A stretch of DNA of 63,622 nt, filler included, from Reticulomyxa filosa (taxonomy: Eukaryota > Protista > Foraminifera), in NCBI GenBank assembly GCA_000512085.1. It is 24 parts of 24 records of this genome, joined end to end, with 100 filler letters (N's around TTAATTAATTAA, not from the genome) between each part and the next. Parts side by side here need not be neighbours in the genome. Positions count along the whole stretch, not along the records: positions 1 to 1,682 come from ASPP01006743.1; 23 more parts are not named here. One strand, given 5' to 3'. A program made the translations under genes and the position numbers. The notes under the pieces were generated by a model. It had not been told where the DNA came from. It was given only the letters and a program-made list of their open reading frames with translations, and did not search any database. Shown here piece by piece: positions 733-850 of the stretch. Numbering within the stretch: position 1 is the first letter of the stretch; each line of letters begins with the position of its first letter.

Positions 733-850
733 ATGAATACCAAACCCGCATCCGCATTCGTGTTTTTTCCTGGTGGCGCCTGTAACGGCGGCACCGCGGT
801 TGCGTACGTAAAGCAAACCCGGGAGCAGCTGACAAGGCGCCCGGGTTTAT
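733..850 (+). promoter_or_regulatory. Trp leader peptide (...SWWRL*) and ribosome-mediated attenuator upstream of trpS
   Basis: ATG at 733 and TGG TGG CGC CTG TAA at 771-785, one base out of frame with the ATG. Hairpins: 772-780/787-795; 798-803/813-819; AAACCCGGG 815-823/CCCGGGTTT 840-848. Confidence 0.75.

Follow-up and report, generated by a model that had tools for sequence, protein, structure and literature searches.

A conserved Trp-codon leader and a probable two-lock attenuator ahead of the gene for a type-II tryptophanyl-tRNA synthetase

The window, the whole stretch of 63,622 nucleotides that was analysed, is a chain of 24 pieces with 100-base N spacers between them; the first piece is a GC-rich bacterial contig, and most of the others are AT-rich. 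A second GC-rich piece (0.61), at window positions 22504-23564, lies among the AT-rich ones and is probably another bacterial contig of a mixed assembly. On the first piece, a glutathione S-transferase (GST) gene and trpS, which encodes a tryptophanyl-tRNA synthetase (TrpRS), are separated by a 300-base gap that holds the leader element. The features are as follows.

1..1682, unstranded: bacterial contig, GC 0.64, piece 1 of 24, 98.3% identical to locus L082 of genome G072.
3..608, plus strand: GST gene, 5' end cut, outside the switch; an A is missing after 58.
696..725, plus strand: promoter predicted from family conservation, with TTGACG (696-701) and, at 717-725, a -10-like hexamer that is TG-extended and departs from the consensus.
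733..785, plus strand: 17-codon leader ORF ending SWWRL, with one T missing in the run 763-768; Trp codons at 771-776, stop at 783-785.
772..780, plus strand: segment 1, lying across the Trp-Trp-Arg codons; forms helix 1:2 with 787-795.
786..803, plus strand: segment 2, 5' strand of antiterminator 2:3; conserved sequence, pairs with 813-831.
813..840, plus strand: segment 3, 5' arm and loop of a terminator-like hairpin; a hub with segments 2, 4 and 5 as alternative partners.
835..856, plus strand: segment 4, which completes hairpin 3:4 (815-830:835-848) as its 3' arm, with a weak T tail.
874..893, plus strand: segment 5, a 16-bp complement to 821-840 (3:5, 821-840:874-891), or a partner of the ribosome-binding site (RBS) and AUG (5:6).
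900..915, plus strand: segment 6, Shine-Dalgarno (SD) GGAG at 901-904 and trpS ATG at 911; 5:6 (881-893:900-915) lies over SD and ATG.
911..1682, plus strand: trpS, truncated where the contig ends (341 aa in L082); its TrpRS belongs to the Deinococcus TrpRS II type.

The initial annotation placed the sequence in a Betaproteobacteria-like organism, and protein matches together with a family genome search bear this out: the host is a betaproteobacterium of Chromobacterium vaccinii's family, and C. vaccinii is the best named genome match of the window TrpRS protein (89%). A set of 68 genomes of this family was searched for the type-II enzyme, which is present in 64 of them and matches the query protein at 99-100% in 7.

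The trpS product has the HLGH and KMSKS motifs of a class I W/Y synthetase and scores above the TIGR00233 cut-off. Its earlier assignment to TrpRS-II agrees with the best PDB matches, the Deinococcus radiodurans TrpRS II structures 1YI8 and 2A4M (E 1e-94, next match 2e-51), with which it shares Gln where the housekeeping copy has His. Of 144 type-II loci, 140 have Gln in place of this housekeeping pocket His, and His is found in 3/3 housekeeping loci. The pocket His presumably governs indolmycin binding. Passages of PMC10201369 place E. coli His45 beside the Trp pocket, duplicated synthetases and indolmycin are treated in parts of three reviews (PMC9437257, PMC7916415, PMC6804068), and a passage of the first of these describes Deinococcus radiodurans TrpRS II as radiation-induced and partnered with NO synthase.

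Upstream of trpS, all the strings quoted in the initial annotation lie where it put them: SWWRL-stop at 768-785, the pairing words at 772-780, 787-795, 798-803 and 813-819, and those at 815-823 and 840-848, the latter followed by AT. As the window reads, ATG 733 and the Trp codons lie in different frames, and two one-base repairs had been offered. The first, an extra T that gives a 17-aa leader, is correct: a T follows 762 in four related loci (L082, L081, L085 and L087) and in sequencing-run contigs, and L086 likewise gains one base there. The second, the RIRIRV reading, is ruled out by the relatives' sequences and the sequencing-run contigs. The alignment with L082 spans the full 1682-base contig at 98.3% identity and has only 2 gaps, each one base long and each in a homopolymer run. 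At the first, L082 has an additional A after 58, which restores the GST frame; at the second it has an additional T after 762, which brings ATG 733 into frame with SWWRL. The suspected missing base at 738-768 is present in the runs, contigs of X1 and X3 (DNA) and X16 (RNA) carrying both extra letters, and the X15 contig has the A after 58 and next to no cover at the T. Since both indels against L082 are homopolymer single bases and independent runs carry the letters, the break of the leader frame is likely a one-base assembly error.

A conserved short ORF with a Trp-codon end, as the initial annotation anticipated, precedes the trpS-II homologues at 64/64 family loci and at 44/80 of the wider relatives, which are the best 80 loci outside Chromobacterium vaccinii's family. 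This ORF has 13-20 codons and ends W(W)(W)R-like, with tandem Trp at 63/64 family loci and a single Trp at L144. The leader occurs in 0/3 housekeeping-type TrpRS loci of the family, and the same leader rule finds a background of 32/1162 in control windows; set against that background, 64/64 family loci put the observed Trp-codon leader beyond chance. No NCBIfam model matched two 20-residue leaders. Many of the family leaders (L081-L144) are Phe-rich just 5' of the Trp codons (FFF, FVFF), a stretch that could add sensitivity to Phe or to tRNA modification.

Wider relatives with the leader include Burkholderia, Paraburkholderia, Massilia, Undibacterium and many Alphaproteobacteria, and it is absent in Acinetobacter and Cupriavidus, which have type II only. 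In a plasmid collection, 91 records match the TrpRS-II protein, 23 from Staphylococcus and 21 from Klebsiella, and the leader is present on 5/5 of the matching records examined, from Burkholderia pyrrocinia, E. coli, K. pneumoniae, Agrobacterium rubi and Vibrio. In the E. coli plasmid NZ_CP090457.1 (L149) and the K. pneumoniae record NZ_CP129856.1 (L150), the WW leader of TrpRS-II is intact and the hairpins are laid out in the same way; one record has the gene flanked by IS26 and IS1, and in the other it follows two SMR efflux genes.

Decayed attenuators lose several parts together: the stop and T tail are lost in L022, from a genome with one TrpRS, and the Trp codons and T tail in L018, from a genome with two. 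L036, in which the leader is gone and a hairpin remnant is left, forms a natural decay series with them. That such decayed leaders exist, and that the ATG is out of frame in the window itself, would fit a leader that is a real frameshifted remnant here, or an element that does not respond to Trp. Against this, only two indels separate the contig from a 98.3%-identical genome, both single homopolymer bases and one of them frameshifting GST, independent runs carry both letters, and the Trp codons are kept throughout the family loci; either reading is extremely improbable.

The initial annotation called the enzyme auxiliary. This holds for the closest genomes, G072 and G068, which have a divergent second TrpRS, as have 60 of the 64 family genomes with TrpRS-II, but not for G046, G048, G049 and G050, where the leader stands before the single TrpRS gene present, so that a sole enzyme would be under feedback control as well. 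An attenuated TrpRS-II would be an inducible spare in most genomes, as their second TrpRS, and would be under feedback control in those where it is the sole one. Among the wider relatives, the leader stands on 40/46 type-II genes of two-TrpRS genomes versus 4/34 of one-TrpRS genomes (Fisher p 6e-12), counts in which L048, whose second match is another type-II fragment, is scored as one-copy and some genomes are incomplete MAGs. In a separate sample drawn evenly from Alphaproteobacteria, the leader is present in 2/3 new two-copy and 0/6 one-copy cases. After kinship correction on a tree of 106 proteins, the link between leader and copy number comes down to 6 independent pairs, 2.8 the same way and 0.0 opposite, with a median p of 0.25. 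The tie between the leader and a second TrpRS gene is thus strong in raw counts and consistent in direction, but not significant once kinship is taken into account.

Beyond the end of the window contig, a gene of the chorismate mutase type II family (PF01817) lies at L082:2595-2912 and starts 68 nt 3' of trpS. Homologues are found 3' of trpS in at least 40 loci (39 genomes, all in Chromobacterium vaccinii's family), and this downstream gene may be co-regulated by the attenuator.

In alignment, TTGAC lies 36-37 nt upstream of the leader ATG at 63/64 family loci. On the strength of this spacing and the -10-like box, transcription is predicted to start at or next to ATG 733, which would make the transcript leaderless. 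A simple consensus promoter/terminator scan called neither a promoter nor a terminator in the region. The -10-like box (window 717-732) is T(T/G)TGAT-like, not TATAAT, in most family members and TATACT-like in Burkholderia loci; the transcription start site data for B. cenocepacia J2315 in PMC4603805 name, in the available passages, a single TrpRS.

A full attenuator had been proposed at 733-850. The geometry of 1:2, 2:3 and 3:4 is there as described, but segment 5, which can mask the RBS, lies beyond 850, the element extends to the trpS start (about 915), and the terminator tail is weak. The pairing of 772-780 with 787-795 exists as helix 1:2, with weak covariation (p=0.04 and 0.007). The competing antiterminator pairing also exists, at 786-803:813-831, which is longer than the 6-7 bp first given; its free energy in the window is -19.3 kcal/mol, and helix 3:4 sits in a -21.9 kcal/mol fold. 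The minimum free energy of the whole region is unremarkable (z -0.88). No Rfam family matched window 1-3000 at E<=1, and 8 homologous loci gave two chance-level hits, none above the gathering score.

After helix 3:4 the window has 4 T in 8 nt; at least 5 T are present in 52/63 family loci and at most 4 in 11/63, and several alphaproteobacterial loci have no T tail. These weak or missing tails favour a mainly translational attenuation with Rho-dependent polarity, in which 3:4 would not terminate here but only determine if segment 5 covers the RBS, with mRNA left untranslated being ended within trpS. The spacer 849-893, which is C-rich and G-poor, points the same way, as does the S. lividans trpS leader, also without a U tract according to passages of PMC8079986. 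However, the strong T tail retained by most of the family speaks for selection on termination, and this Rho-based account appears improbable.

Covariation was measured by an alignment-free partner swap, because MAFFT does not put segment 5 in register. For each segment, the duplex energy with its own partner was compared with that for other loci's partners and for shuffles, on representatives of <80% identity. The family set comprised 19 representatives of 63 unique loci and the non-family set 25 representatives of 36, 7/43 leader loci having been dropped (anchor, arm or start not found, or long spacer). The swap ignores the tree and the null control pairs are the sole guard against kinship; their p values span 0.05-0.94 overall, with p 0.87 for family controls against coding sequence. 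For 3:5, the duplex energies with own, swapped and shuffled partners are -29.5, -23.8 and -17.3 in the family and -20.2, -15.6 and -11.1 outside it. Family covariation is found for loop:5 (p=0.0001) and 5:6 (p<0.0001), and non-family covariation for 3:4, 3:5, loop:5 and 5:6 (all p<0.0001) and for 1:2 (p=0.007). The covarying stems proposed for the trpS-II homologues are therefore present in part: the terminator stem 3:4 covaries, 1:2 does so weakly, and 2:3 shows no covariation (p 0.41-0.46), though it is conserved and much stronger than shuffles.

A conserved helix that can mask SD/AUG and has an alternative upstream partner is thus seen in two independent locus sets, 5:6 and 3:5 covarying in both. 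Outside the family the same design is written in other letters, the 5' arm being a GCCGCC-type word and the stretch just 5' of the RBS being complementary to arm and loop. L024 has an extra ~110 nt between segment 5 and the RBS, which folds as a long hairpin. The covariation of segment 5 with the terminator 5' arm and loop, or with the RBS/AUG, suggests, as comparative evidence, that segment 5 could be a second, translational lock.

In a plain four-segment transcription attenuator there would be no such lock: segment 5 would only make a constitutive RBS hairpin or stabilise the mRNA from read-through, and would match segment 3 as a by-product, for example of an old duplication of the terminator 3' arm. 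The tail of at least 5 T in the 8 nt after the arm, found at 52/63 family loci, suits this simpler account. However, the hairpin loop region is matched by segment 5 and not by the 3' arm (loop:5 p<=0.0001 in both sets), segment 5 also shows covariation with the RBS/AUG, and its match is kept across alpha-, beta- and gammaproteobacterial loci of differing sequence.

Folding tests bear on both accounts. Equilibrium folds with ribosome masks gave no switching: the hairpin 3' arm is paired in 62-63/64 loci, by a blunt terminator measure that counted any upstream pairing, and the SD is closed under every mask. Because hairpin and RBS stay closed at equilibrium, the switch must be kinetic. When the nascent RNA is cut just before segment 4, 2:3 takes up the terminator 5' arm more strongly if the ribosome sits at the Trp codons than if it sits at the stop, in 63/63 loci under a 12-nt mask, with medians of -19.3 versus -7.3 kcal/mol; the capture is stall-dependent in 52/63 loci with a 10-nt mask and 63/63 with a 14-nt mask. 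The mutually exclusive helices 1:2, 2:3 and 3:4 are placed for a stalled ribosome to free segment 2 and for one at the stop to cover it, an arrangement that holds as a kinetic model only.

With folded states imposed, the median cost of opening the RBS is 3.4 kcal/mol with 3:5 versus 10.9 with 3:4, and the barrier to 3:5 is 12.6 from 2:3 versus 22.9 from 3:4, in 63/63 loci each, counts that arise partly by construction because the 3:5 and 3:4 states were imposed. Full 3:5 is uphill from 2:3 while the ribosome is stalled, by a median of +8.8 kcal/mol, which is an overestimate because upstream bases were forced unpaired. A 3:5 toehold of at least 4 bp forms in 57/63 loci, and after ribosome release the ON path is lower than the OFF path in 39/63 only. 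Blocking segment 4 opened the RBS in 1-4/63 only, the block also removing part of the 3:5 toehold. That 2:3 alone accounts for the stall dependence, and that the RBS was not opened in equilibrium or blocked-arm folds, again suits the plain four-segment attenuator, which, with the segment 5 matches on the other side, is considered unlikely.

In RNA run X16, contigs reach depths of 657 and 1767 over the leader against 40 upstream and 310, 149 and 55 in trpS, and have adapter-like ends at 750, 875 and 939; this depth was set aside as evidence because contig depth cannot rank gene parts and the other RNA runs are single flat contigs.

That the element is a Trp-sensing attenuator of some form is almost certain. 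In its specific form, a two-lock ribosome-mediated attenuator, with a terminator hairpin and a hairpin over the RBS before the type-II trpS, is the probable reading. The analysis shows the ORF, its conservation and the covariation of 3:4, 3:5 and 5:6; from these we infer the start site, the stalling, the termination and the folding order. Transcription would begin at the ATG of the leader. When charged tRNA-Trp is abundant, the ribosome would reach the stop at 783-785 and cover segment 2, so that 3:4 could form and RNA polymerase would stop. In transcripts leaking past the weak tail, segment 3 would be tied up, segment 5 would fold onto the RBS/AUG (5:6), and trpS would be left untranslated. 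With charged tRNA-Trp scarce, the ribosome would stall at 771-776, antiterminator 2:3 would form before segment 4 is made, and the polymerase would read on; segment 5 would then grip the free 3' part of segment 3 and zip into 3:5, leaving the RBS open. A more speculative extension, which is possible and rather doubtful, treats this portable five-segment attenuator as a ratchet, with the terminator 5' arm and loop as the RBS anti-sequestrator: the stall would let the polymerase through and pre-dock segment 5 on the loop, and the advance of the ribosome would lock the translatable fold. If the ratchet holds, the synthetase would be made only from transcripts born during tRNA-Trp shortage.

The E. 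coli trpL leader works by attenuation through the ribosome on tandem Trp codons. With this and other classical trp attenuators (alphaproteobacterial trpE(G) trpL and the Rfam Trp leader families), the two-lock element shares tandem Trp codons, the 1:2, 2:3 and 3:4 helices and GC-rich segments that pair in turn; unlike them, it controls a synthetase, not biosynthesis, and has a fifth segment and an RBS hairpin. Predictions made by Lopatovskaya in 2010 reportedly include trpS among the attenuator targets in bacteria, proteobacteria among them, and may pre-empt part of the proteobacterial trpS attenuator. A passage in PMC4833913 has Lopatovskaya 2010 outlining a mechanism that overlaps the ribosome-binding site, and a passage in PMC1262725 notes triples of GC-rich segments pairing in turn for trp attenuators. 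In Streptomyces, trpS (trpRS1 / trpS2) is likewise preceded by a Trp-codon leader and competing hairpins, as far as passages of the sources go: an attenuator with leader peptide is predicted for S. avermitilis trpS2 (PMC1262725), and RNA-seq finds a leaderless 13-aa leader before S. lividans trpS (PMC8079986). Unlike the Streptomyces leaders, the element described here is proteobacterial; it stands on an enzyme of the Deinococcus TrpRS-II type and has two or three Trp codons, a usually T-tailed terminator and a covarying segment 5. Direct evidence of translation for a proteobacterial trpS leader comes from Caulobacter crescentus, where ribosome profiling marks CCNA_03913, a 48-nt ORF ending 78 nt before trpS (passages of PMC4117421).

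In full-text literature searches, none of the titles or abstracts listed dealt with a TrpRS-II attenuator of Proteobacteria or with pairing between a terminator loop and an RBS, and the available text of PMC13434334 does not mention trpS. The Trp leader-peptide attenuator is known in kind and is apparently uncatalogued for the TrpRS-II clade in Proteobacteria.

Most genomes of the family carry TrpRS-II, as do plasmids and secondary replicons in other Proteobacteria, and a shortage of its own product likely induces it. The purpose of second synthetases, whether starvation, Trp analogues or TrpRS inhibitors, thereby becomes directly testable, and natural compensatory variants of the segments are available for testing. 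The element may offer a compact and widespread model in which termination and RBS masking are coupled through one hub segment.
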